Shown here: in pieces, positions 1-13,943 of the stretch
How the letters are laid out: every line of letters starts with the position of its first letter
How positions within the stretch are numbered: position 1 is the stretch's first letter
Source: Thermodesulfovibrionales bacterium
Lineage (GTDB): Bacteria; Nitrospirota; Thermodesulfovibrionia; Thermodesulfovibrionales; UBA1546
NCBI GenBank assembly: GCA_030018605.1
Contig: JASEHP010000001.1
Coordinates: 1-36,459 of the forward strand
Direction of reading: 5' to 3'
DNA: 36,459 nt
The notes under the pieces: generated by a model
The model's database searches: none
What the model was told of the DNA's origin: nothing
The model's input: the letters and a program-made list of their open reading frames with translations, nothing else
Position numbers and translations under genes: made by a program

Positions 1-473
1 GCCAATGGCACAAGAGAGAGAACATTGTACAGTACCTGCCTAAGAAGATGCAGAGCGAGTTCAGGAAGAAACTTCAGGCTGCCTATGAGAAAGAAGACTA
101 CGACAAAGCAAAGACAGCGCTGCTGGGTATCAAGAAGGAACTGCGCCTGATAAATGAATCAGCGGTTGCAAGCATGGAAGAGGGGTTTGAAGAGAGCCTG
201 ACTGTTCTCAGGCTCGGGCTGCCCAGAGAACTCAGGCGGAGCCTTAAGACAACAAACATCATTGAATCAGTGCTTGCACTTGTGGGACAGAAAACGGACA
301 AAGTGGATTATTGGAAAAACAGTGACCAAAAACAGCGCTGGGTGGCTACTGCATTACTGGACATTGAGCCGAGGCTTAACCGTGTATGTGGATACCGATA
401 TCTTAAGAACCTGAAAAATGCATTGCAGAGAGAAATCTTACAAGGAAAAAGAAAGGAGGCAGTGGCTGCCTGA
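1..473 (+). mobile_element. IS256-family (Mutator-type) transposase, 3' part only; the gene enters from beyond the left window edge
   Basis: The frame is open from nt 3 (QWHKRENIVQYLPKK...) and continues into ...SLKTTNIIESV.... This matches my recollection of the IS256-family C-terminal motifs (C-x-H-K-x-RN ... TN-x-IES). Stop at 471-473. About 50 bp of presumed IS end follow before the next gene fragment. Confidence 0.8.
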
Positions 474-505
474 CATGCAGCACAGGGGCCATTACAGAAT
501 TTCAA

Positions 506-1009
506 CTAACAATGGGATTGACACCACTCATGACGGGAACCATCCTGATGCAGCATCATGCCGATATATGGAGCCCGTGGCCGCTGCTTTCTGTGAGTTC
601 CCTTTCGAGAAGCTTTCTGTACAAGCCCTTTGGACTGAAGTGTCTTTTTTACCCATGTGTAACTCCTCATGCCACTGTGTGCCCTGCGATACCAACTATA
701 GAAATGTTTGGCGGTAAATCCCCTATATCTACGACTATACAGATCAGTTAAGGCAATGACTTCGTCAACCGGCGCACTGCGGTGCGATACCTGCCCCAGA
801 CGCCTGTCTGCAAGACCCCGCATCCCTTCTTCCTCATACCGAATCAGATAGCGCCGAAACGTCCTGTCACATACACCAAGCAGCCTTGCTGCCTCTTCCT
901 GCGTCAATCGCCCTCTATTCCATCCGTCATATGCTTCTTCAAATCTCATCTTCCGTACCTCCTGCAGTATCTCTGCCCTCTTCATGGATAGCTCCTCCTT
1001 GCTATCCAA
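506..1009 (-). pseudogene. ISNCY/IS1202-type transposase, N-terminal fragment truncated by the IS256-type element
   Basis: There is an N-terminal HTH region (RLTQEEAARLLGVCDRTFRRYLIRYEEEGMRGLADRR). Homology stops right at the start of the DDE/rve core (GMMLHQDGSRHEW). The last 5 codons (CQSHC) and the stop appear to be read-through into the neighbouring IS end. At 167 aa it is far shorter than a full transposase of this type. Confidence 0.7.
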
Positions 1010-1044
1010 TCTTAAACCGGACAGTTTATGTGTTCTCTACAACA

Positions 1045-1347
1045 TACTGCGCTGAGGGAATGCCAGCGATAGATATTGTATATAATAAATACAAAGAAAG
1101 AGGAGTCATTATTCTTGCTGTAAATGTAGGTCAGCCAAAGGATGTGGCAGAGGCATTTGTAAAGAATCTTAGGATATCTTATCCTGTTCTTCTGGATACC
1201 TACTCTATTGCCGCGAAGCAATACGGCGTTGTGAGGTTGCCCACCACCTTTATCCTTGACAGAAAAGGCGTTATAAGGGAAAAGATACTGGGCGAGGCTG
1301 AGAGAGATTCATTTGAAAAGATGGTGGTAAATCTTCTATCTTTTTGA
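1045..1347 (+). pseudogene. TlpA/ResA-like periplasmic thiol:disulfide oxidoreductase, C-terminal fragment (N-terminus and CXXC lost)
   Basis: YCAEGMPAIDIVYNKYKERGVIILAVNVG...YPVLLD...YGVVRLPTTFILDRKGVI is the typical thioredoxin-fold TlpA/ResA core starting inside the WCxPC motif. The upstream part of tracked ORF 886..1347 overlaps the antisense IS transposase 5' end and has no thioredoxin similarity. Confidence 0.7.
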
Positions 1348-1360
1348 TGAGACAATTCGC

Positions 1361-1417
1361 ATCTCGTCTAACCCTGAATATATTCTTACTGTCTCAGGAA
1401 TGGGATACAGAGTTTAG
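1361..1417 (+). pseudogene. Relic of the 3' end of an OmpR-family response-regulator gene
   Basis: It translates to ISSNPEYILTVSGMGYRV*. This matches the C-terminus of the intact regulator in this window (PEYILTVSGAGYKFRQ*). The nucleotide differences are mostly at synonymous positions. No upstream body of the gene is present. Confidence 0.5.
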
Positions 1418-1425
1418 GAGTAGAC

Positions 1426-1692
1426 CTAAGAAGCGCCTGCGCCTTCTTCGGAAGCGTTCACATCCGCCCCTTCGAGGCTGTAATAAGAAAGATAGACTCC
1501 GCGCGCGCCTTCCACATCTTTGAGCGTATCGAGCTCCTTCTTCATTTCGGCAGGGGTGTCCCGCTCTATAAGGAAAACGACCTTTTCCTCCTTGAGGTCT
1601 GTTACCTCTATCTTCCTTTTCTTCAGGTCGTTTACGACTACCTCCACATGTCCCTCGTCATGTGCCTCAATATAACCGCTTGCTACAAGCAT
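1426..1692 (-). CDS. napD: NapD-like TAT-proofreading chaperone
   Basis: 88 aa, with a NapD-like pattern (hydrophobic N-terminal strand, VEV, ...VVFLIE..., ...LKDVEGARGVYLSYYS). It is the last gene after napG and napH. Confidence 0.7.
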   Translation of the reverse strand: MLVASGYIEAHDEGHVEVVVNDLKKRKIEVTDLKEEKVVFLIERDTPAEMKKELDTLKDVEGARGVYLSYYSLEGADVNASEEGAGAS

Positions 1693-1712
1693 GGATTACC
1701 TCCCCGTAATTT

Positions 1713-1740
1713 GAGTTATGAGTGATGAGTTTTGAGTTCA
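1713..1740. repeat. Tandem heptamer array GAGTTAT GAGTGAT GAGTTTT GAGTTCA (4 units)
   Basis: Read directly in the napH-napD intergenic spacer, just upstream of the napD ribosome-binding site (on the minus strand). Confidence 0.9.
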
Positions 1741-1774
1741 CCCATCAATTAAAAAATCTATAACTAACCGCCAG

Positions 1775-2635
1775 TTATTTAAGTGATAACTTTACCAGTT
1801 TCCCTTTTGTCTCACAGCCCTCTGCACACCTGCCGCAGTAGATGCAGTTTATATCTCTGAGTCCGGGTTGGTCAATGTGTCGGGCTATTTTCACGTTCAT
1901 ATAACATAATCTATCACAGAGGTTGCACTCGCCGCACTCTCCCGGGTAGTATTTGAGTTTAAGGAGACTTACCTTATTAAACAATCCGTAAGTCTTTCCA
2001 ACAGGGCATAATACCCTGCACCATGTCCTCGGGAATATGTATTCAAAGACAAGCAGAAAGACTATAACCCCGCCTGAATATACAAGCACCGAAGGCTCAA
2101 ACGGCAGATTAAGGGCAAGAAAAACACCGCCTGTAATGAATCTAAAAAAGTTTGTGAGATGAGAGATATAGTTTGTAAAGAACGGGATGCCTAACAGTCC
2201 TGAAACAACAAGCAGTCCGGCTGCTATCCCATAACCAATCTTTGGTGATGCCTTGACCTTTACCTTTGACCAGTTTTTGAATCCGTCCACAATCTCAAAA
2301 AGGAAATCCATGGGGCATACCCAGCCGCAGAATGCCCTGCCGAATATGAGATAAATGCCAATGATTGGAACAACTGCGATTAGGGTTGTAGTTGTAAAAT
2401 CCTTTGATGCTGCCAGACTCTCAAAATAAGCAAATACATCAATGAGCTTTACAAACCATCTCGCCAGAGAACCTGAGAGTCCGCCAACCAGCGCCTTTAC
2501 ACGAAAAAACTGCAACAAAAAGAATATTAGGACGCTGAACATCACAAAACGCCTGAGATTGGATAGCTTCAGTAATGAGTTCGGAGTTCGGAGTTCGGAG
2601 TTTAGTGTCTCTTTATCTTTTAACTCATAACTCAT
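1775..2635 (-). CDS. napH: NapH-type membrane-bound polyferredoxin (quinol dehydrogenase membrane subunit)
   Basis: Several TM helices, two CX3CP motifs (CGWVCP, CRVLCP), and two C-terminal CX2CX2CX3C clusters (CGECNLCDRLC, CIYCGRCAEGC). The ATG at 2635 has AGGAG 9 nt upstream and follows the napG stop. The tracked GTG at 2671 is an alternative start. Confidence 0.85.
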   Translation of the reverse strand: MSYELKDKETLNSELRTPNSLLKLSNLRRFVMFSVLIFFLLQFFRVKALVGGLSGSLARWFVKLIDVFAYFESLAASKDFTTTTLIAVVPIIGIYLIFGRAFCGWVCPMDFLFEIVDGFKNWSKVKVKASPKIGYGIAAGLLVVSGLLGIPFFTNYISHLTNFFRFITGGVFLALNLPFEPSVLVYSGGVIVFLLVFEYIFPRTWCRVLCPVGKTYGLFNKVSLLKLKYYPGECGECNLCDRLCYMNVKIARHIDQPGLRDINCIYCGRCAEGCETKGKLVKLSLK

Positions 2636-2649
2636 AACTCTTGACTCCT
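2577..2649. repeat. Two heptamer arrays in inverted orientation: (GAGTTCG)x3 + GAGTTTA, a 17-nt spacer, then (AACTCAT)x2 AACTCTT GACTCCT
   Basis: Read directly. The arrays lie at the napG/napH junction, in the first ~20 codons of napH, and encode MSYEL...SELRTPNS. Confidence 0.9.
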
Positions 2650-2657
2650 GACTGTCT

Positions 2658-3428
2658 TTAACGGTATTCACGTTCTACCAATCTCCCCTTTGCCATAATC
2701 TGGGGCAGATTCTGTCCGTAAACAATGTTGTATCTCTCCTCGTTGGACATTGCAAGCAGTCTCTTAAACTCATCCACATATGGCGTTTTAACTTTCTCAT
2801 ACTGTCTTTCGGTAATCACCTTTATAGCAGAACCGCCGAGCGGGCAGTATTTGACACAGAGGCCGCAGCCGACGCAGTTTTCATTTATATACGGCTGGTT
2901 GCCCCATTCGCCGTTGTAAAAATCAAAGATATTTGCGCCCATAGGACATGCCTTGCTGCATGAAAGACAGACATCGCCGTTCCAGCCAAAACAGAGGCCG
3001 AAATCAATAAGCGCCATTCCCATTGTAACTTTCTCTTTTTTGAGGTTTTTCAGAGCGTCTGTTGGACAATGCTTGGGACACTCCATGCACAGTTCACAAG
3101 GGAAATCCCTCATGTCCTTGATATACGGCGTGCCGAAGTTTCTTATGTCTTTGATTCCGGCAACTGCAATGGCGTCGTATTTCATCGTATGGCATACATT
3201 CACGCACACGCCGCAGCTTATGCACTTTGCCCTGAACTCTTTTTCAGGCAAAGCGCCCGGCGGCCTTATAATGCCGCCGACCTCTATATTCGGAAGAGGA
3301 CCCTCGAATTCTTCCTTAGCTGCGTAAGCATTCCTTTCCAAAAGATAAAAAGGGCTGCCTATTACAGCAGCGCTGCCTGTTATCAGCGATGCCTTCAAAA
3401 AATCTCTTCTGGTGAAATGATTCTGCAC
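2658..3428 (-). CDS. napG: NapG-type periplasmic ferredoxin with four [4Fe-4S] motifs (TAT-exported)
   Basis: Twin-arginine signal (TRRDFLKASLITGSAA) and four Cys clusters: CISCGVCVNVC, CELCMECPKHCP, CLSCSKACP, CVGCGLCVKYCP. Directly upstream of napH. Confidence 0.85.
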   Translation of the reverse strand: MQNHFTRRDFLKASLITGSAAVIGSPFYLLERNAYAAKEEFEGPLPNIEVGGIIRPPGALPEKEFRAKCISCGVCVNVCHTMKYDAIAVAGIKDIRNFGTPYIKDMRDFPCELCMECPKHCPTDALKNLKKEKVTMGMALIDFGLCFGWNGDVCLSCSKACPMGANIFDFYNGEWGNQPYINENCVGCGLCVKYCPLGGSAIKVITERQYEKVKTPYVDEFKRLLAMSNEERYNIVYGQNLPQIMAKGRLVEREYR

Positions 3429-3443
3429 AGCCCTTACAGCGCT

Positions 3444-4382
3444 TTATTTTTTCTCAGGGGCAGCGCTGCCTTTTGCCTTATCTTTCCCGCTGTCCTTTAT
3501 GCCCTTTGAGGCAAGGTATTTGTCCACTTCCGCCTTGTTAATTTTAACCTTGTACATCTTTTTTATATCCTGCAGATATTTGTCTAATATCTCCTTCTGC
3601 TTCTCCTGCAGCAGAACCCTTCTAATATCTTCCTTTATATTGTTGATGTCAACATTTTTGCCTTTTTTCCTGTCAGTAACCTTGATAATGTGATAGCCGA
3701 ATTCGGTCTTGACAGGCTGGCTTACATCGCCCTTCTTCAATGCCCTGATGGCATTGTTGAACTCAGGCGGCATTTTGCCATCCTCGAAGGAGCCGAGATC
3801 GCCGCCGAGCGCTGCACTCTGTTTGTCTTCAGACAGCTCTTTTGCCACCTTTGCAAAATCCTCACCTTTTTTAATCCGCTCATGCGCCTTCTTTATAGTC
3901 GCCTCGGATTTGGTCATGATATGGCTCAACCGGATTTGTTCGGGAGATGCTAACTCGCCCATATTCTTCTTGTAATACTCTTTTATCTCGCTGTCGGAAA
4001 CCTTAACCTTCTGCGACAGCTCTTTTTCGAGAAGCATCTGTATTATGGTGATCTTTTTATAGTATTCGAGCTTTTTCTGAAGGGCGCTGTCCTTGTCTAT
4101 GCCTTTTTTTACGGCCTCCTGGTGCAGGGCTTCCTTGTTTGCCATGTCCTCGAGGAAACGCATAAACTGGTTGGAATCCTGCAAAAATGCCTCCCGTACA
4201 TCCTCCGGCATACTCTGAAGCTCTTTCTCAATATCATCTTTGGTTATGCCGATTTCATTCAGTTTGACCAGCGCTGTCCCGGTTTGCTTGCCGGGGTCAG
4301 CCTTCTTTGGCTGCTCGCCTTCCTTTTTGGCGCATGAAGCTATAAGCAAAAGACTAACAAAAAACAATAAAAACTTTTTCAT
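3444..4382 (-). CDS. Parvulin-type peptidyl-prolyl cis-trans isomerase lipoprotein (PrsA/SurA/PpiD-like)
   Basis: Lipobox (LLLIASC), a long helical chaperone-like region, then a parvulin core (RLSHIM...GGDLGSF...FGYHIIKV). Confidence 0.85.
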   Translation of the reverse strand: MKKFLLFFVSLLLIASCAKKEGEQPKKADPGKQTGTALVKLNEIGITKDDIEKELQSMPEDVREAFLQDSNQFMRFLEDMANKEALHQEAVKKGIDKDSALQKKLEYYKKITIIQMLLEKELSQKVKVSDSEIKEYYKKNMGELASPEQIRLSHIMTKSEATIKKAHERIKKGEDFAKVAKELSEDKQSAALGGDLGSFEDGKMPPEFNNAIRALKKGDVSQPVKTEFGYHIIKVTDRKKGKNVDINNIKEDIRRVLLQEKQKEILDKYLQDIKKMYKVKINKAEVDKYLASKGIKDSGKDKAKGSAAPEKK

Positions 4383-4513
4383 CCATCCTCCTGTTTAATT
4401 TTTTTGTTCTTCAGGCCATTAAAACCACATATTATATTATAACCCATTGAAGTTATCTAAACAAATCAGCTATTGCATCAATCCGTCTCCTGTTGAGTTT
4501 TTATCCATCAAGC

Positions 4514-5458
4514 TTACTCTTCTGCTGTCTTCAGACGAATGGCGTCATAATGCAGCCCCTGTTCTTCGTAAAGTACAGACAGAGCCGCTCTGATTAGTTT
4601 TGCCTCTTTGCTGGCAGGACCCTTAATCTCATCAATAATTGCAAGCGCCTTTCTGTAATACATTTCGCTCTCTATATATTTCTTCTGTGTATGATAATTG
4701 GCGGCAATGCCAATCAATGTCTTTACATAATCAATATGCGCGATGCCAACGGCATTCTCTATGATATGCATTGCTCTTTTATAATACTGCTCTGCCTCTT
4801 CAAACATCTTCATAGTCCTGTGCATCCCAGCAAACAAATACAGCGCTTCTGCCATCTCTGCGCCGTATGGATTGCCATGCGACTCAAGCATCTGTATAAC
4901 CGCTTTAAGCGATAGTTCCGCTTCTCTGAACATGGCCCTGATAATATATAGTTCTGCGCGATGAATTAAAATATCTGCAACTCCGGGATATTTTATGCTC
5001 TCGCGGTTCAGCGCCATAGGATCTAACCCTTTTATGGCAAATGCTTTCATCAGCACAGTCTCTGCCTGCCTGAATAATTTGTCCGCCTTTGTGTATTGCC
5101 GTAATCCCATATAAATCCTCGCCTGCAAAGCATATGCAAGGGCGGCATTCAGATGAACATCTCCGAAATCCTGCGTTGCTGTTTCCAATGCCTTTGTAGA
5201 AGTCTCAAGGGCGCAGGCAAGTTTGCCTGCTTTGCGCAGAGCCTCAGCGGTCTCATATAACTTCTTCCAGTTATCAACCTTTGCCTGCCCAATATCTTCC
5301 GGCGCAGGAGCAGGATTTCCACCTGCAAGATATACCCCGCAGGCAACTGCCTCTATAGGATCTTTCTCCTGATTTACAGGTGAGGGTACTTCTCCTGCAT
5401 AAACTGTATTGCCAAACAAAACAAATAACAACCCCACCAAAATCCCTGAAAATCTCAC
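4514..5458 (-). CDS. Secreted TPR-repeat protein
   Basis: N-terminal signal peptide (ILVGLLFVLFGNTVYA). Repeated A/Y/L-rich 34-residue-like helical repeats (e.g. ...EAEQYYKRAMHI..., ...ESEMYYRKALAI...). Confidence 0.75.
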   Translation of the reverse strand: MRFSGILVGLLFVLFGNTVYAGEVPSPVNQEKDPIEAVACGVYLAGGNPAPAPEDIGQAKVDNWKKLYETAEALRKAGKLACALETSTKALETATQDFGDVHLNAALAYALQARIYMGLRQYTKADKLFRQAETVLMKAFAIKGLDPMALNRESIKYPGVADILIHRAELYIIRAMFREAELSLKAVIQMLESHGNPYGAEMAEALYLFAGMHRTMKMFEEAEQYYKRAMHIIENAVGIAHIDYVKTLIGIAANYHTQKKYIESEMYYRKALAIIDEIKGPASKEAKLIRAALSVLYEEQGLHYDAIRLKTAEE

Positions 5459-5542
5459 ATCAAACCTCCTGCGGTTCTATCTTGCATTGCCTCGGCTATC
5501 CGTCAGCAAAAGCTACGTATTTTATCACACCCGGAGTTAAAC

Positions 5543-5579
5543 ACAAATAAAAGGGGACACGCAAAAACCGTGTCCCCTT
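5543..5579 (-). terminator. Rho-independent terminator downstream of the NapA-like gene
   Basis: Perfect 11-bp stem AAGGGGACACG / CGTGTCCCCTT with a 7-nt loop, followed on the minus strand by TTATTTGTGT. It sits 20 nt after the stop codon. Confidence 0.8.
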
Positions 5580-5598
5580 ATTATGTCATACACTACGG

Positions 5599-8500
5599 CT
5601 ATACAACAATCTTTCCGGGCTCCGCCTGTCTGCCCTTTGTTTTTCCCTTGTATATCTTTACTGCAAACATCTTGAAGTCTGCCTGGAAGCTGAACGGATC
5701 AAAGGCATCCCTCATTATCATGTTGATGAGCTTGAACTCGTCAAACCACGGGATAAAGACATAGTCATGTCTCGGACCGCCGGTCGCTTTCTGGACATCA
5801 AGTATCTTAGCCGGAAGCTCTATCTTACCTCTCGGCGATTCAACGATAACCGAATCACCATTCTTAATATTGAGCTTCTTAGCAAGTATCTCGTTGATCT
5901 CGACATAAGCGCCGGGAACTGCGCGTGTCAGTTCAGGAACCCTTGCGGTCATGGAGCCTGAGTGCCAGTGCTCAACAACACGGCCTGTACATGCGCCGTA
6001 TTTGTAATCGGTGGTGTCAATGATCAGAAGCTTGCTTCCGTCAGCCTTTGTGTATTCATGCTTAAGGTTATGGAATTCAGCAGGGCTTAATGCTATGTTC
6101 TTCAGGGCATTCATGTCCTTGTTCGGATCTCCGACAACATTGACAGTGTATTTTGCCTTCACATCAAAGGGTAGTGCGCTATTCTCATTTACCTTGCTGG
6201 GATTAAAGGCCCTCTCAAGAACCTCAACGGTATTATGCCTTACAAACTGTTTGCCGTCGAACTTGCATGCCCACCATGGGTTTGCCCATGCTACAGCCCT
6301 GCCGTCCCAGCCCGGAGCCTTTCTGGTTTTTCCGTCCGGAGTCTTGATATCTACCATGCCGTTGATAAAGGCATTAGAGTTGTAGAAGCTTGCATACCAT
6401 CCGGAAGGAAGGTTTTCCGCCCTGTGGTATTCCGCATCATTCTTCATGTCATTGATGTTTTTCTCAAGCCATGAGCCATAGACCGGATTAAACTCCTTCA
6501 TATTCTTCATATAGAAGGCGGTCTTACCGTCTATATGCGGGTCATATGGATAGGCATATTGTATGCTGGAGACGTACTTGTCGTATCTCTTCTTTACATC
6601 GGCATTGGTGTGATACTCTGCGGGCAGGGGAATCCTGTAGCCGTGGTTCTGCTCAAGGAGCATCTTCCTGTTCATACCGCTAAAGTCATAGCCTGTGCCC
6701 TTGGAGAGGGCCATGAGTTCTTCCCAAATGTTGGTGGAGAACTTTCTGTTCCAGTCCTTTGTTTTGCCTGCCTCAATAGTCTTTTTGAGCCAGTCTGCGC
6801 CGTCGTATTCCGCCGGCCAGAACATGGAGACATGCCCTTTAGGGACGAGTCCCTTTTCCTCAAGCCTTCTCATGATACATGCAAAGATGGTGTGGTCAGG
6901 GAGTGTATCTCCATAAGGCTCAATGACCTGTTTGACAATCTGATACCTTCTCTCAAGGTTTCCGTATATGAATTCCTTTTCATACCATGAGGATGCGCCG
7001 AGCACCACATCAGAAACCATTGTGGTTGCATTCGGGAATGCCTCAAGGGTTACGGTAAGCGGCCATGCCGCTCCTTTGTGAGCGCCTGCCATTGCAAGCC
7101 TGTAGGGCCATGAATATGGAAGGCTCTGCCCGGAGTTAACCGTGGAGTTTATCATTATCTTTATCTGTCCTGCTCCAAGCCTTCTGAACATCTCAACTGT
7201 ATGGGGACCGGGCTTGTCGTGGATCTTGATTTTATCAAGTTCAGCTTTTATTGCTTCTGCTGACATGCCTTTCTTCTTCAAATAAGCTTCAGCCCTGCCT
7301 TTCCATATACCTTCAACTGCTGCCCTGTGCAGAGGATTAGCAACAAGCCTTCCATAAGGAAGCGCATGGCACAATGCTCCCGGCGCCCTGATTCCGCCGC
7401 AGGCATTGGGCTGTCCTGTAAAGCTGAAGGAATGCCTTCCGGGTTTTACTGTCTGTCCTGTGATAAGGTTGATCATGTGTAAAGAGGCGTTTGTCCATGT
7501 TCCTTGAAGCTTCTGATTAACGCCCATACACCATGCAGACAGTGTGTATCCTTCAGCATACCATTTAGCAGCAAGCCTCACTGCATCTGGCCCGCTAATC
7601 TTCTTCCATGTCCTTGTTGCTTTGTCATAGAGGAGAGGGGATTCACCCTCAAATATCGCATCGGAGACCTTTTCAGGTTTGTAGTCTTCAAGGAACTTCA
7701 GGAATACGGCAAAACCCTTGTAGAGGTCTTTCATTACATCTTCCTCTGAGGCATATTTGTTTTTCAGGTTTGGATAAGTCTTTCTCGGCTCTGCTGAATA
7801 TGTCAAATCCCAGGCTGCGTCCCTCGTGCCGCCATATGTGGTCTTTACCCATGTCTTCTTCACATCCTCGTGTATTCCAAAGCTTACATGTCTTTCAATG
7901 AACTTCTTGTCAAGGTATTTCCACTTTGCATCAACTGTGCCTTTCTCCACATCATACTTTGCGCCGTCAAGCTCATGGGTAATAACATACGCTATTGAGT
8001 TGAGAAGCACGAGGTCCCTGCCTGTTGCAAACGGAAGCCATAAATCGGCAATTGTTCCGGAACGGGTCTTTCTCGGGTCAGCGAGGATTACCTTTACATT
8101 TGGTTTTTTTGCCTTCAATGCTGCAATCCTGTTGAAGATTATGGGATGTCCTTCTGCTGTGTTACTTCCTATCAGGAAGAATGTATCGGCAGTTTTGCCA
8201 AAATCAGGGTCTGGAACATCAATATCGTCAAGGCTTCCGTAAGGCTCGTCTTTTCCAAATGTATAAAGATAGCCCACGACTGCGGATGCCATACACATTC
8301 TCGGCTGCCCTTCTACCGCGTTATTTGCAAGCATGCCGCCGCCCTTGAGGGTTTTATTCATAATGTGGGTCTCTTCCGTTCCTGCCTGACCGCTGCCGTA
8401 ATATGCAACACTGTGTTTGCCGTTTTCTTTGACTGTCTTTTCCACTGCATCAGCCACAAACTCTATGGCATCTTCCCACGGTATGAGAACAAAATTCTCT

Positions 8501-8934
8501 TTCAGGTCAACCTCAGATGGTTTTATCCCATGCGGATCTTTTGTGTTTTTCCCTTCAAGAACCCTCGGGCAGTCCTTCAGGTCAGGCTTTCCTGTTTTGG
8601 GATTAATCAATTCCTTTCTTACATAAGCGCCCTTTGGCCTGTCCTTGTACATGAGCGCCTTATGGACATAAAATCCTTTTGTGCAGAGGACGCCCCTGTT
8701 CACAGGGCTCTTGAGGTCTCCTTTAATTGCAATAACCTTTGTTACCTTGCCTGCTGCGTCAACTTCACAGTCTGCTATCATAGTGCACCCAACTGCACAA
8801 TATCTGCACTGTCCCACTGGAAATGTTTTTATAGAACCAGCAGCAAACAGCATTTCCGGCTTAGCAATCCCGGCCCCAGCGGCAGCAGCGGTTATAGCGC
8901 TTGCCCTTAGAAAATCTCTTCTACTGAGTTTCAT
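5599..8934 (-). CDS. napA: Periplasmic molybdopterin oxidoreductase, NapA-like catalytic subunit, unusually long (1111 aa)
   Basis: TAT signal ([19 protein letters not shown]) and an N-terminal CX2CX3C...C FeS motif (CRYCAVGC...[11 protein letters not shown]). There is a NapA-type Mo-ligand segment ([20 protein letters not shown]). C-terminal NapA signatures are present: [20 protein letters not shown] and [20 protein letters not shown]. These motifs align to E. coli NapA as I recall it, but the protein is about 280 aa longer. Confidence 0.85.
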   Translation of the reverse strand: [1111 protein letters not shown]

Positions 8935-9580: not shown

Positions 9581-9612
9581 TTAAAAATAAAAGGGGGAGC
9601 TTGCGCTCCCCC
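9581..9612 (-). terminator. Rho-independent terminator downstream of the octahaem cytochrome gene
   Basis: GGGGGAGC / GCTCCCCC stem with a 4-nt loop, followed on the minus strand by TTTTATTTTT. It sits 15 nt after the stop codon. Confidence 0.8.
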
Positions 9613-9626
9613 AAATCTATCATTTA

Positions 9627-11396
9627 CTACTTTCCTGCTGGCATTGCTGCTGCTGCTCTTTTGTCAGCAATTGCCTTGTTCAGGATGTCAATGCCTTTCC
9701 ATGAAAGAACAACTGACCTTGCGAGTGTTACCTTGGCGTTCTCAATGTTATGGAAACCATCGGAATTCTCGCCGGTCCACCATTCCCAGTACATGTGCGC
9801 ATCTTCGTGGATCTTTCTAACTTCATTAAGTGTCTTCACATCAACACCCCAGTCTTTTGCGCGCTGGAATGCATCAACAAGTTCCCTCAGCCAGACCTCT
9901 GCCTTTCTCATGTTCTGCTTGACGTAGTTCTTCGCAGAGTCTGCGGCATAGCCGGCATCATGTGATGTCCAGTCCGGATGGCAGGTAAGGCATGGCTTCC
10001 ACTCCATCGCCCTTGGGGAAACATGGAAGTGGGAAGAATAGGTCTTGCCATCCTTGCCCTTCTTCTTGCCTGCTGTATGGCAGGTTGTGCAGGTTGCTCC
10101 AGCCTTTGCGTGAGTAGAGTTGTAGAATGCCTCTGCCTCAGGGTGCTGCGACTTCCAGAGCTTTGCGCCTGTGATATAGTGGGCTAAATCAAAATATTTC
10201 CACTTTTCAAGGTGCTTTTTAAAGGTCTCATCAACAATCTTATGCTTTTCAACCTTTGCCAGTCCCTTGAACGGGAAGTGGTTGGTCCTTCTGTCAGTTG
10301 CAAAGTCAAGGGCTACAGGCGGCTTGCCCCATTCAGACTTTTCATAGTCAAAGTGGAGACCGCAGTTGTACTCAACATGGCACTGACCGCACTGAAGTAT
10401 TGGGTCATACTTGCTGAGGATTGCAATCTTCCTCTCATGTCCGCGGAATCCGAGGCCGTCTTTATTGCTGTAAACCTTGATATCTGCCTTTCCGGGGTAG
10501 CCCTCATGCCAGAGTGTGTCGGTCTGGGTTGTGAGCGCCTCTATAAGAGCGTCTCTCACAATCCTCGGTTTTGCCGCATGCGGGTCATGGCAATGAATAC
10601 ATGGCAGAGCGTTCCTCAGATACTTCACCGCATTGTAAGCAGGATTTCCTGCTCTGCTGATGTCAGAGGTCTTTGGTGAAGGATCGCCCATGTACGGCCA
10701 TGCAAGATGGTCGTCAGATGATTTACATTTTAAACAAACAGGAACTGCCGCAGGAGCTGTCCTTTCCTGAAATGCCTTCTTGGGAGCCTTGAGGTCAACA
10801 TCAGGATATGCATCATAGAGGACATCCCATGCCTTGGGGGCTATGCCGCTCTTGTCTATTACATACTTGAAACCATTCTTTGACTTGAACCTTCCGCCGT
10901 AAGACCTGTCATTAATCAGATGGTCAATAAGCATATACTTGTGGCTTCTGGTCTCATTGTGGCTGATTTCAAAGGCATAAGGTCTGATGAGGGTTTCCCA
11001 GAAAGGCGAGCGGGACTTGGGGTCGCCCTTGTCAAACTGAGCCTTTTTCTCATAGTTGTGACCGATGAAACTTGCGTGCTGGTCTTTGTGACACTTGCCG
11101 CATGCCTCGTGGTCAGTGTTGGTTGAAGGTCTGCTCTTCACGTCTGCAAGGTGTTTGTCAATGCCATCATGACAGTTGATGCAGTTTACAGTCTTGTGGA
11201 TTCCATTTGTGTGGAAATCCTTAATAAGGGCATGGCATGCGTAGCATGTCTCTACCTTTACATCTTTTACTGCAGCTTTTGCTGCGGCTTTTGCAGGGAC
11301 AGCTTTCTTCTGGGCATCAGCACTCGTATAATAGACGCCTCCTACTATGACAAGCGCCAGAACTAAAATAAATGATACATAAATCTTTTTACTCAT
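9627..11396 (-). CDS. Octahaem cytochrome c nitrite reductase (ONR/TvNiR-like, NrfA-related)
   Basis: Seven CXXCH motifs (CYACH, CINCH, CGKCH, CIHCH, CGQCH, CTTCH, CLTCH) plus one CXXCK (CLKCK) as the fourth motif. NrfA-like segments are CLKCKSSD and CGQCHVEYNC. N-terminal signal/anchor. The ATG at 11396 has AAGGAGG 8 nt upstream; the tracked start at 11447 is less likely. Confidence 0.85.
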   Translation of the reverse strand: MSKKIYVSFILVLALVIVGGVYYTSADAQKKAVPAKAAAKAAVKDVKVETCYACHALIKDFHTNGIHKTVNCINCHDGIDKHLADVKSRPSTNTDHEACGKCHKDQHASFIGHNYEKKAQFDKGDPKSRSPFWETLIRPYAFEISHNETRSHKYMLIDHLINDRSYGGRFKSKNGFKYVIDKSGIAPKAWDVLYDAYPDVDLKAPKKAFQERTAPAAVPVCLKCKSSDDHLAWPYMGDPSPKTSDISRAGNPAYNAVKYLRNALPCIHCHDPHAAKPRIVRDALIEALTTQTDTLWHEGYPGKADIKVYSNKDGLGFRGHERKIAILSKYDPILQCGQCHVEYNCGLHFDYEKSEWGKPPVALDFATDRRTNHFPFKGLAKVEKHKIVDETFKKHLEKWKYFDLAHYITGAKLWKSQHPEAEAFYNSTHAKAGATCTTCHTAGKKKGKDGKTYSSHFHVSPRAMEWKPCLTCHPDWTSHDAGYAADSAKNYVKQNMRKAEVWLRELVDAFQRAKDWGVDVKTLNEVRKIHEDAHMYWEWWTGENSDGFHNIENAKVTLARSVVLSWKGIDILNKAIADKRAAAAMPAGK

Positions 11397-11617
11397 CCAA
11401 AATACCTCCTTATTGAAGTGATGCATCTTTTTTGCTGCTTGGACCATTTTACTGCTTTGACCATTTTGTTGTGCTTCTCACCCCCCTTATCTTATTTGTG
11501 GTAATCAATTTTATAATAATAGCACATTAATATAATTTTTGGGTTAGTAAATGTGCGGTTAATTTGTGTAAAGATTCGGTAAAAGTGTTTTTAGGAGAAA
11601 ACGTCTGAAAATGCGGA

Positions 11618-12295
11618 CTACTGTCTGAATTTGTATCCGGCGCCGGACACAGTCAAAATGTACTCCGGCTCGGAAGGATTTTTTTCTATCTTATGCCTGA
11701 GATGCTGGATATGGACGTCTATGACTCTGCTCCATGAATATATTTCAGATTCCCTCCATATCTTTTTTCTGATAAATTGCCTGCTGATTACTTCGCCTCT
11801 GTTTGTGATAAAGAGATGCAGCAGTTCATATTCCTTCGGGGTGAGTTCAATCTCTTTGCCTTTGACTTTAACTGTGTGAGCGCTGAAATTAACTTCCAGA
11901 TTATTGATTACGATTGTGCTGTCAACAGGCATGGTCCTTTTGAGGCACGCTCTTATTCTCGCTATGAGTTCAAGCGTTTCAAAAGGTTTTACTATGTAAT
12001 CGTCAGCGCCGCTTTCAAAGCCCATTACCTTATCAAAGACGCTGTCTTTTGCTGTGAGCATAATAATGGGTATTCTGGGATACTGGTCTTTCAATAACCT
12101 GCATATCTGGATTCCGTCGCTGTCAGGGAGCATGAGGTCAAGTATTATAATATCCGGCAGCTGATTATTCAGTATATCGTGCGCTTCTGCCCAATTGGCG
12201 GCTGTGACAGCATCAAACCCGTACAACTCAAAGTTTGCCTTAAGCACTTTTAATATGTCAGGGTCATCATCTACAACAAGCAGTTGTTTTTTCAT
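11618..12295 (-). CDS. OmpR/PhoB-family response regulator
   Basis: Receiver domain (LVVDDDPDI...IILDLMLPDSDG...LTAK) plus a winged-helix C-terminus (LTPKEYELL...EYILTVSGAGYKF). Overlaps the kinase gene stop. Confidence 0.9.
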   Translation of the reverse strand: MKKQLLVVDDDPDILKVLKANFELYGFDAVTAANWAEAHDILNNQLPDIIILDLMLPDSDGIQICRLLKDQYPRIPIIMLTAKDSVFDKVMGFESGADDYIVKPFETLELIARIRACLKRTMPVDSTIVINNLEVNFSAHTVKVKGKEIELTPKEYELLHLFITNRGEVISRQFIRKKIWRESEIYSWSRVIDVHIQHLRHKIEKNPSEPEYILTVSGAGYKFRQ

Positions 12296-13943
12296 CCAGA
12301 AAAACCTCTTTTCTTGTCATCGGTACAGTGAACCAGAAGCGGCTGCCTTTGCCTTCAGCAGTCTTTAGCCCTATCTCTCCGTTATGCGCTTCTATTATGC
12401 CTTTGCATATTGCAAGTCCCAGCCCTGTGCCGTCTTTCACGCCTCTTGAGTAGAATTGTCTGAATACCATCTCTTTTTCAGCCTCAGCGATACCATATCC
12501 CCTGTCCTCTACGCTTGCATTTGCATATCCGTTCGTTCCGGCGAGCGTGACAATGATATCGGATGATTCAGGACTGAAGTTTAACGCATTGGACAGAAGA
12601 TTTGTCAGCACCTGCTTTATCCTGTCTTCATCAGCATGAACTGTTACATCCTCTCCCCTGAGTTCTATATTGACTTTTTTCCCCTCCGCCAATGACCTGA
12701 AGCCTGTGATAACCTCATCAAAAACATCGTTCAGGTTTATTTCTTTAAAATGCATTTCAAATTCACCAAGTTCTATCCGCTCGTAGTCAATCACGTTATT
12801 TACCAGCCTTATCAGCCTCTCGGCATTATTTTTTATTACCTCAAAAAATACTTTAAGGTCTTCCTCATTCTCTTTTCCGTGCATTGAAAGTCTTACGGAG
12901 AGGTAATCCATTGCTCCTTTTATGGACGTAAGGGGCGTCCTTAATTCGTGTGAGATATTTGCAATAAAAGCGGATTTTGTTTTATTTAATCTCAACAGGC
13001 TCTCGTTTTTTTCTGTAAGTTCCCTCGTAGCTGTGATTATCTTATCATGGAGACACCTATGGTATTCATCAATAGACTTTGCCATGTCTATAAAAGATTT
13101 GCTTAACTCTTCAAGTTCGTCATTTGTTTTGATAACCGGGATATCAGGATTGCCGTCTTTTGAGAAAGCAAGCATGAGGGTTCTAATTTTTTTTATGGGG
13201 CTTATGACAAGTCGTTTTGTTGTCATAAACAACACGGCGATGAGCACCGCAACGGTAATAATGCTGCCGAACAGCATGTATTTTCTGTCAGAATGTATTA
13301 CATTGAATGCATAGTCCATCGGGATGGATACACTTATGGCTCCTCTTATGTCGCCGACATTATAGCCCTGCTTGTCATGGCAGTGAAGACATGCCTTTTC
13401 AACATAAAGCGGGGCAATGTATCTGAAGTAATAAGAGCGTCCAATCTTTTCAACAGTTGATGAGTCTTTTAGTTTTTTTGTCTCAAAGTCTTGAAGCGCT
13501 TTCTTTTCAAAGGCGTCAGGGGCATTTTCGGGATTCATGAGTTTAAGGCTGGTTATATGAAACCAGAAGAGCCCTTCTTTCGCAGCGTACATGGAAAGTT
13601 CTTTTGTGACCATGGCAGGATTTCTCTTAACATACCTCATGCCCTCGGTATCGACTATCTCTGATTTCATGCCTTTAAGATAAGGGTTTGGCTTTATCCA
13701 TGGCAGCCTTTCCACAAATACCCCTCCGTGGTCAGCGATCCACCTTCTTGTAATTACCAGCTGCTGGAACAGCGCCTTTGCCTGCATCTCTATCTGAGTG
13801 AGCACAAGCCTCTCGTGTCTTTTGGAAATGACGATAAGTGTTATTCCCATTACGGCAGCAAGGATTATGATTGTGGAGATTATATACTTCAGGCTAAGGT
13901 TTATCCGCATCTGAAACATCCATCGGAACAGCTGTTCCGGCAA
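12267..13943 (-). CDS. Sensor histidine kinase with an extracytoplasmic c-haem (CXXCH) sensor domain, HAMP, HisKA and HATPase domains
   Basis: One TM, then a ~190-aa domain ending in CLHCHDKQGYNVGDIRGAISVSIP (DUF3365-like by recollection), then a second TM. H-box SHELRTPL, with G-boxes in the C-terminus. The exact start is uncertain (TTG 13943, ATG 13919 or 13910; no clear SD). Confidence 0.85.
   Translation of the reverse strand: MPEQLFRWMFQMRINLSLKYIISTIIILAAVMGITLIVISKRHERLVLTQIEMQAKALFQQLVITRRWIADHGGVFVERLPWIKPNPYLKGMKSEIVDTEGMRYVKRNPAMVTKELSMYAAKEGLFWFHITSLKLMNPENAPDAFEKKALQDFETKKLKDSSTVEKIGRSYYFRYIAPLYVEKACLHCHDKQGYNVGDIRGAISVSIPMDYAFNVIHSDRKYMLFGSIITVAVLIAVLFMTTKRLVISPIKKIRTLMLAFSKDGNPDIPVIKTNDELEELSKSFIDMAKSIDEYHRCLHDKIITATRELTEKNESLLRLNKTKSAFIANISHELRTPLTSIKGAMDYLSVRLSMHGKENEEDLKVFFEVIKNNAERLIRLVNNVIDYERIELGEFEMHFKEINLNDVFDEVITGFRSLAEGKKVNIELRGEDVTVHADEDRIKQVLTNLLSNALNFSPESSDIIVTLAGTNGYANASVEDRGYGIAEAEKEMVFRQFYSRGVKDGTGLGLAICKGIIEAHNGEIGLKTAEGKGSRFWFTVPMTRKEVFLDEKTTACCR

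Follow-up and report, generated by a model that had tools for sequence, protein, structure and literature searches.

How does a nitrite reductase with a lysine-ligated catalytic haem obtain its electrons, and how is that haem attached, when neither NrfH nor a dedicated haem lyase is encoded nearby? The question is raised by a 36,459-nt stretch of the genome of a Thermodesulfovibrionales bacterium (assembly GCA_030018605.1, contig JASEHP010000001.1, positions 1 to 36,459; hereafter the window), in which a minus-strand gene at 9627 to 11396 encodes a predicted octahaem nitrite reductase (ONR). A preliminary description made from the window's letters had noted eight haem sites, the fourth of them CLKCK, had likened the protein to the ONR of Thioalkalivibrio, and had remarked that no CXXCK-specific lyase and no quinol-oxidising partner were encoded in the window and that the gene, having its own strong terminator, read as monocistronic. 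The assembly to which the window belongs comprises 1.72 Mb in 277 contigs and is 93.6% complete. Our analysis points to a periplasmic, ammonia-forming ONR in a nitrate-to-ammonium island, fed with electrons by NapGH and matured by housekeeping haem attachment, a proposal that we consider likely as a whole.

The window gene encodes a predicted octahaem nitrite reductase

The gene and the motifs that bear on its assignment lie as follows:

9627 to 11396, minus strand: ONR gene, 589 aa, with its start at the ATG at 11396
11405 to 11411, minus strand: ribosome-binding site AAGGAGG, separated from the ATG at 11396 by an 8-nt spacer
10722 to 10736, minus strand: CLKCK motif (residues 221-225), catalytic haem 4 site with Lys225 as proximal ligand; matches C184-K188 in TvNiR (2ot4) and does not vary among 50 homologues
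10362 to 10391, minus strand: CGQCHVEYNC (residues 336-345), haem 6 site with Glu342 (Ca), Tyr343 (catalytic, Ca) and Cys345 (Tyr-Cys crosslink partner); these match E302, Y303 and C305 in TvNiR and do not vary among 50 homologues

Met1 of the product is aligned with the starts of at least 90% of the 50 homologues. The ATG at 11447, which would give a longer protein, is unlikely to be the start, as no ribosome-binding site is present there. The protein begins with a hydrophobic helix (residues 4-27) and an Ala/Lys/Pro-rich linker, after which come three N-terminal haems and a pentahaem core resembling that of NrfA. Its eight haem sites are CYACH at residue 51, CINCH at 72, CGKCH at 99, CLKCK at 221, CIHCH at 266, CGQCH at 336, CTTCH at 436 and CLTCH at 469, which gives the order that defines an ONR, three CXXCH motifs, one CXXCK and four further CXXCH, and bears out the haem count and the CLKCK assignment made earlier.

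In a search with phmmer against all Protein Data Bank (PDB) sequences, the best matches were ONR chains (E 9e-119 for 3sxq, 1.8e-118 for 2ot4 and 6.5e-116 for 8rv0), all of them over residues 43-578. Pentahaem NrfA chains matched at E 1e-19 or worse and in the C-terminal half only, and the chains of octahaem tetrathionate reductase (OTR), hydroxylamine oxidoreductase (HAO) and MccA gave no match even at E<=10. Identity to 2ot4 is 43% over 508 columns. The C-terminal pentahaem core matches PF02335 at 124 bits, and the protein falls far below the cut-offs of the NrfA equivalog models (57.9 bits against 595 for NF008339; 35.7 against 692.5 for TIGR03152). An AlphaFold2 model built on a 50-sequence alignment (pLDDT 75.8, pTM 0.79) gave Foldseek TM scores of 0.87 to both 2ot4 and 8rv0, 0.48-0.67 to NrfA and 0.16-0.18 (E 0.1) to MccA; OTR and HAO were not in the match list for this model. 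By its Foldseek title, 8rv0 is the ONR of Trichlorobacter ammonificans (TaNiR), and it matches a protein from one of the Geobacter loci at E 1e-232.

The functional residues of TvNiR are all retained. R131, K188, E302, Y303, C305, K358, Q360 and H361 of 2ot4, whose chain numbering was checked residue by residue against the printed alignment, correspond to R164, K225, E342, Y343, C345, K415, Q417 and H418 of the window protein, and all eight columns are invariant in the 50-sequence family alignment. The catalytic residues of the distal pocket (R164, Y343 and H418) are thus kept, and so are those of the Ca site (E342, Y343, K415 and Q417), which we take from the TvNiR structures to be E302, Y303, K358 and Q360 in that enzyme. 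C345, the sole non-haem cysteine of the protein, lies two positions past the catalytic tyrosine and is a candidate partner for a Tyr-Cys bond. In most rows of the Geobacter clade this tyrosine motif reads VEYAC and not VEYNC. Compared with a 93.5%-identical copy on a metagenome contig from Hainich H32-type groundwater (L061), the gene shows a dN/dS of 0.109; as judged from its sequence it is intact and under purifying selection.

We placed the protein in a maximum-likelihood tree of 46 rows (quick search, SH-aLRT support only) with three pentahaem NrfA from relatives as the outgroup; the partial rows L042, L043, L045 and L047 were left out, and two PDB rows were rebuilt from their printed aligned parts. 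The ONRs were monophyletic with respect to NrfA (SH-aLRT 100) and split three ways: TvNiR falls in the first clade, TaNiR and Geobacter in the second, and Desulfurivibrionaceae and Nitrospirota sequences in the third. Within this last clade the window ONR belongs to a subclade on a long branch (0.75 changes per column; support 100) that also contains L008-L014, whose hosts are Thermodesulfovibrionales, Dissulfurispiraceae and Caldimicrobium; the sister of the window ONR is L008 (support 98). The subclade is set apart from other ONRs by six small insertions, of which the longest has 10 residues (384-393), and by seven diagnostic substitutions, none of them catalytic. Elsewhere among the loci, the ONRs of L019-L023 (Nitrospirota and Deferribacterales) are otherwise full-length and count only seven haem motifs by the C..C[HK] pattern; one of their haem sites may be non-canonical.

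Together, search, alignment, fold and tree assign the window protein to the TvNiR/TaNiR family of octahaem nitrite reductases, as a predicted nitrite-to-ammonia enzyme, and by the same comparisons exclude OTR, HAO and MccA identities. The earlier likeness to the Thioalkalivibrio enzyme is therefore upheld. It had been tied to the catalytic residues and to placement apart from tetrathionate- and sulfite-type octahaem enzymes; since those residues are present and no such clustering is seen, neither objection applies. The protein is a member of an already characterised family, and its subclade is uncharacterised.

The ONR gene heads a Nap gene cluster

On the minus strand the order is sensor histidine kinase, response regulator, ONR, monohaem protein, NapA-like protein, tetratricopeptide repeat (TPR) protein, peptidyl-prolyl isomerase (PPIase), NapG and NapH:

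12267 to 13943, minus strand: sensor histidine kinase with a Tll0287-like periplasmic domain (PF11845, E 7.8e-24)
11618 to 12295, minus strand: OmpR/PhoB-type response regulator directly upstream of ONR; the kinase-regulator-ONR order is also found in L061 and L022
8953 to 9477, minus strand: secreted monohaem (CYTCH) protein with a choice-of-anchor-V domain (NF041895, E 1.2e-27), in the usual position of NapB
5599 to 8934, minus strand: NapA-like molybdopterin oxidoreductase of 1111 aa with a twin-arginine (TAT) signal (NF010055, E 6.6e-130, below the equivalog cut-off)
4514 to 5458, minus strand: secreted TPR protein, which only L008 also has; there it overlaps the start of a ResB paralogue
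3444 to 4382, minus strand: parvulin-type PPIase lipoprotein with lipobox LIASC, also in the cluster in L008-L014
2658 to 3428, minus strand: NapG-like periplasmic ferredoxin with twin-arginine signal TRRDFLK and four Fe-S cluster motifs (NF007012, E 9.4e-30)
1775 to 2671, minus strand: NapH-like membrane quinol dehydrogenase subunit with two CX3CP and two C-terminal [4Fe-4S] motifs (TIGR02163, E 8.7e-34)

The NapA-like gene lies 0.7 kb downstream of ONR on the same strand, an arrangement kept in nine loci, and its product is 72-89% identical among the loci of the subclade. The NapG/NapH pair follows 6-8 kb downstream of ONR with its hallmark motifs complete, and the cluster that holds it is kept across three phyla. 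No dihaem NapB was found in the NapB position, where the gene encodes one CXXCH and a choice-of-anchor-V domain; a monohaem gene directly upstream of the long NapA is also found in L008-L014, L047 and L061. After NapH, an 88-aa open reading frame at 1426-1692 (minus strand) has no Pfam match at E 0.01.

In L008-L014, L047 and L061, too, ONR, monohaem, NapA, (PPIase), NapG and NapH follow one another on one strand in this order. This Nap-linked order is conserved across Nitrospirota and Thermodesulfobacteriota, and other arrangements occur in Geobacter: the Desulfurivibrionaceae loci read ONR-NapA-NapG and the Geobacter loci NapA-NapG-NapH-ONR. Of 45 loci, 21 have NapA within 10 kb of ONR and 17 each have NapG and NapH at that distance; contig ends cut several of the remaining loci. 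A full-length NapH-family gene lies 3-8 kb from ONR in six genomes (G001, G005, G014, G019, G022 and G025).

NrfH has a different distribution. Of 25 relatives, only G005, G020 and G023 have a genuine NrfH (155-167 aa, E 1e-13 to 1e-15), each time directly beside a pentahaem NrfA, and it is absent from every ONR-only genome. The window holds no genes for NrfH, NrfBCD, NrfEFG or NrfI/CcsBA, and its assembly holds no true NrfH or NrfB partner. The assembly's only match to PF03264 (NapC/NrfH) is partial and lies on contig C95; it covers the last 46 model positions only, and we rejected it as NrfH because the protein is a class-III-type multihaem cytochrome. This cytochrome c (L007:3-1701) has at least eight CXXCH motifs, is cut by the contig end and adjoins a twin-arginine NrfC/DmsB-type Fe-S protein. 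The pair may form a quinol-linked module, with its membrane subunit past the contig end.

The earlier statement that the window encodes no quinol-oxidising partner thus holds for NrfH and NrfBCD, but it overlooked NapG and NapH, downstream on the same strand. NapGH is the menaquinol dehydrogenase for Nap in Wolinella. In 2023 Sorokin and colleagues reportedly proposed, presumptively, that NapGH feeds both Nap and ONR. An ONR partners Nap in T. ammonificans, where a 'Nap-TaNiR complex' has been described (PMC11972089, PMC13390470), and in Desulfurivibrio, NapAGHD occurs with an ONR that is strongly upregulated during the dissimilatory reduction of nitrate to ammonium (DNRA) (PMC12142623); in both organisms ONR serves respiratory DNRA (PMC11972089, PMC12142623). 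The 'NrfA' of Desulfurivibrio comes without nrfH and nrfB and carries a membrane anchor (Thorup et al. 2017, PMC5516251). By gene content and order, the window cluster matches this published Nap-ONR ammonification module. Because gene context supplies NapGH and published work pairs Nap with ONR, the apparent puzzle of the missing NrfH is mostly resolved.

A Tll0287-like kinase and an OmpR-type regulator also stand beside the ONR clusters, in varied arrangements, of L061, L022, L010-L013, L047, L018 and L020. The pair is a candidate for a dedicated regulator of the ONR cluster.

A hairpin follows the ONR gene in all clades examined

9583 to 9612, minus strand: intrinsic terminator-like hairpin 14 nt past the ONR stop, with an 8-bp GC-rich stem and a GCAA loop, followed by TTTTATTTTT; dG -19 kcal/mol

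The terminator noted earlier is real. It reads GGGGGAGC-GCAA-GCTCCCCC, then TTTTATTTTT, and its stem is identical in L008 and L061. We found, however, that a GC-rich hairpin directly follows the ONR stop in every ONR clade examined, whatever gene comes next, and that in L009-L011 this hairpin has no T-tract and stands only about 25 nt before the next start codon. As 25 nt leaves no room for a promoter, the downstream nap genes of these three loci must be reached by read-through. The monocistronic reading was therefore taken too far, and the hairpin does not mark functional isolation of ONR. Most economically, it can be read as an attenuator or stabiliser through which the ONR transcript would exceed that of the nap genes.

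The NapA-like gene, too, is followed by a strong terminator-like hairpin, with an 11-bp stem (5551-5579, minus strand), so the cluster may comprise three transcription units: ONR; monohaem-NapA; and TPR/PPIase-NapGH. The spacer between the TPR and PPIase genes contains a promoter-like TAGATA-N17-TATAAT (4431-4459, minus strand), at the place where relatives have a ResB paralogue, and this site may drive PPIase-napGH separately.

ResB paralogues are embedded in the clusters of the nearest relatives

For haem attachment, the assembly carries system II maturation genes. The genome check proposed earlier for nrfEFG, nrfI or extra ccsBA copies returned one ResB (C255:8398-9984), followed by a 506-aa CcsA with a WWD-type motif, and a second CcsA-family gene of 274 aa directly upstream of hemA (C240:2236-3060). 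The same two CcsA-family genes are present in the ONR-positive congener G001 (100% complete) and in the ONR-negative congeners G002, G003 and G006; because ONR-negative congeners carry the same set, no paralogue tracks with ONR. We considered the C240 gene as a dedicated lyase and rejected it: it passes TIGR03144 (227 against 187.6 bits), but it has no WWD-type pattern by regular expression, unlike the C255 CcsA, and its hemA-adjacent, HemX-like position and its presence in the three ONR-negative congeners led us to judge it housekeeping. The housekeeping CcsA (C255:9984-11504) is unusually long, with 506-524 aa in the genus of G001-G006 and a Pfam match split in two; that of relatives G027-G029 is a 361-aa form.

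We searched the 45 ONR loci with the ResB and CcsA of the window genome. No ResB- or CcsA-type gene is linked to the ONR in the window, which thus lacks an NrfI-type arrangement, but in L008, L009, L010 and L011, its four nearest relatives, a ResB-like gene lies between NapA and PPIase:

L008:16681-18222: embedded ResB paralogue
L009:15135-16517: embedded ResB paralogue
L010:15818-17200: embedded ResB paralogue
L011:15815-17197: embedded ResB paralogue

Each is an extra copy beside the housekeeping ResB-CcsA and is without a CcsA of its own. These cluster paralogues form their own clade (support 94) and keep both histidines and the four hydrophobic, transmembrane segments that are invariant in housekeeping ResBs, and the only ResB of the window genome falls among the housekeeping copies (46-50% identity, support 93). 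In the Deferribacterales locus L020, a ResB-CcsA pair directly follows ONR (L020:11698-14191), an echo of nrfHAIJ. The ResB paralogue in the clusters of the four nearest relatives and the ResB-CcsA pair after the Deferribacterales ONR are new here; a literature search for ONR-linked ResB found no paper describing such genes.

With the four cluster paralogues as queries, tblastn recovered only the housekeeping ResB from the window's assembly. Where L008 reads TPR-ResB-PPIase the window reads TPR-PPIase, with the 3' end of the TPR gene and the start of the PPIase gene aligned between the two, and the 131-nt spacer of the window holds no ResB remnant or deletion scar. One clean loss of the paralogue in the window's lineage is the simplest history of this arrangement. 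As the Caldimicrobium loci and L047 are without the paralogue, it is not obligatory for the ONR subclade. The TPR protein had also been considered as an NrfG/CcmI-like apocytochrome chaperone; it showed no similarity to these even at E 0.1.

That a CXXCK lyase is missing from the window is thus correct, and gains interest from the embedded ResB of the nearest relatives, but the premise that a dedicated lyase is needed was too strong. According to a 2025 review, Shewanella matures a CXXCK NrfA without one, the sole protein confirmed to recognise CXXCK in system II organisms is NrfI from Wolinella, and how the others manage is an open question (PMC12285233).

Proposed role of the ONR and alternative explanations

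In the role that we propose, the lysine-ligated haem 4 would bind nitrite for its reduction to ammonium via Arg164, Tyr343 and His418, next to a Ca site formed by Glu342, Tyr343, Lys415 and Gln417. ONR would be the first, and probably the most strongly expressed, gene of a nitrate-to-ammonium island, with the terminator setting its transcript above those of the nap genes. Electrons would pass from menaquinol through the NapH/NapG module to ONR, and not via NrfH or NrfBCD, while the N-terminal hydrophobic helix may keep the enzyme near the membrane. As no lyase gene is linked to ONR, attachment of the CXXCK haem most likely falls to the genome's one housekeeping system II synthase, ResB-CcsA.

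Several observations weigh against parts of this proposal. NapG, NapH and NapA all score below their NCBIfam equivalog cut-offs, about half of the ONR loci are without Nap genes within 10 kb, and we infer NapGH as the ONR donor from gene linkage and from a published proposal that was itself presumptive. The real donor could be the monohaem protein, acting as a shuttle, or the C95 multihaem cytochrome with its NrfC/DmsB-type module and an NrfD-like subunit beyond the contig. The Nap-free loci imply that other donors must exist in the family, the monohaem gene sits between ONR and NapA and co-occurs exactly with the ONR subclade, and the C95 cytochrome lies beside a twin-arginine Fe-S protein. 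Yet the monohaem gene lies about 18 nt from NapA and follows the distribution of the long NapA besides that of ONR, so NapA may be the only partner of its product; no soluble protein with a single haem can oxidise quinol alone; and the C95 module is unlinked to ONR and truncated. We regard a donor other than NapGH as unlikely. The canonical T-tract of the window terminator makes separate transcription of ONR possible, and with it the reading that ONR is a self-standing enzyme for detoxification of nitrite, hydroxylamine or sulfite that is merely adjacent to nap. The role of ONRs, respiration or detoxification, has been called unclear in general (PMC10949509), and TvNiR also reduces sulfite and hydroxylamine, according to the titles of its sulfite complex structures. 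Against detoxification stand the Nap gene order conserved across two phyla, if rearranged in Geobacter, the co-transcription implied by the L009-L011 hairpins, and the respiratory use of ONR in T. ammonificans and Desulfurivibrio; we consider it very improbable for the window gene.

The embedded ResB of the four nearest relatives also counts against purely housekeeping maturation, as it suggests that specialised maturation may matter in the subclade, and with an assembly that is 93.6% complete and in 277 contigs an unassembled lyase or ResB paralogue is possible. On this account the subclade would need the embedded ResB for its CXXCK haem, and the window's copy would lie in the unassembled 6% or have been lost, leaving ONR poorly matured. 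The position of the paralogue in all four other Nitrospirota members of the subclade, its invariant histidines and transmembrane segments, its presence in addition to housekeeping ResB-CcsA, and the Deferribacterales ONR-ResB-CcsA order, which recalls nrfHAIJ of Wolinella (PMC12285233), speak for such a need. The ONR-Nap clusters of Caldimicrobium and L047, which do without the paralogue, speak against it, as do the intact window ONR (dN/dS 0.11), the remnant-free TPR-PPIase spacer with its promoter-like site, the tblastn result and the precedent of Shewanella (PMC12285233). We find an obligatory ResB distinctly improbable. A related and tentative idea, which we think doubtful, is that a specialised ResB (CcsB) paralogue together with housekeeping CcsA recognises the CXXCK of ONR, and that the window is a natural knock-out in which the housekeeping ResB-CcsA has gained a wider specificity or the TPR protein and PPIase substitute. 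If true, it would address the CXXCK question that is open for system II organisms beyond Wolinella (PMC12285233). ONR clusters with and without an embedded ResB, in near-identical order, offer a ready contrast for system II handling of CXXCK.

With the proposed NapGH-fed ONR, a Thermodesulfovibrionales groundwater lineage joins the organisms predicted to make ammonium from nitrate via Nap-ONR and not NrfA. Where nrfA or nrfH serves as the survey marker for nitrate-to-ammonium conversion, such organisms would be misjudged.

Comparison with characterised systems

TvNiR of Thioalkalivibrio nitratireducens and TvPaR of T. paradoxus (2ot4, 3sxq and other structures) share with the window protein the eight haem sites in the same order, the catalytic Arg, Tyr and His, the Ca ligands and the crosslink Cys. 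They belong to another ONR clade, however, and the window protein is about 50 residues longer, owing to its N-terminal linker and six small insertions; its host is a member of the Nitrospirota with system II maturation, whereas the host of TvNiR is a gammaproteobacterium. TaNiR of T. ammonificans (8rv0) is of the same family and resembles the window ONR in lacking NrfH, in its linkage to napA, napG and napH and in being the genome's sole NrfA-superfamily gene. It differs in belonging to a separate clade (40-42% identity), and ONR is first in the window but comes after nap in the Geobacter loci. The modules differ as well: the window NapA is the 1111-aa long form, 31-32% identical to Geobacter NapA, and the window has a monohaem choice-of-anchor-V protein for NapB, plus the PPIase, the TPR protein and the kinase-regulator pair.

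Closer in the ONR tree are Desulfurivibrio alkaliphilus and D. dismutans, whose ONR with napAGHD belongs to the sister group and likewise goes without NapB. Their ONR has no nrfH or nrfB, has a predicted membrane anchor and is upregulated under DNRA (PMC5516251, PMC12142623). It is 47-48% identical to that of the window. ONR, NapA and NapG are linked in the Desulfurivibrionaceae loci L015-L017 too, but the monohaem choice-of-anchor-V gene is absent there and NapA is only 35% identical. The NrfHA and NrfHAIJ systems of Desulfovibrio and Wolinella succinogenes have a homologous pentahaem core, a CXXCK catalytic haem and, as predicted for the window enzyme, the same reaction chemistry. They differ in having five haems where the window protein has eight; the window's assembly has no NrfH, and no NrfI-type CcsBA adjoins its ONR as NrfI does in Wolinella.

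Two ONR modules occupy one chromosomal slot within the genus

3 to 473 and 506 to 1009: IS256 and ISNCY transposase fragments at the end of the island

From 20516 down to 14278 the window runs collinear with the congener G001, at 80-91% nucleotide identity (L055 = G001:C16:38000-56000, positions 1-5567). Past this junction G001 has an ONR of the TvNiR clade (43% identical to that of the window), a dihaem cytochrome c, a haem-copper-oxidase-like gene and a CcoG/NapH-like gene, and the window has the kinase-regulator-ONR-Nap island, which ends in insertion sequence (IS) fragments at the contig edge. Because G001 is collinear and then diverges, two different ONR modules occupy one chromosomal slot within the genus. 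Composition gave no significant sign of recent transfer of the island, as its GC content of 45.2% compares with 43.8% (sd 1.1) for the genome and is reached by 9% of genome windows. By the ONR tree, the modules nearest to that of the window belong to other families and another phylum.

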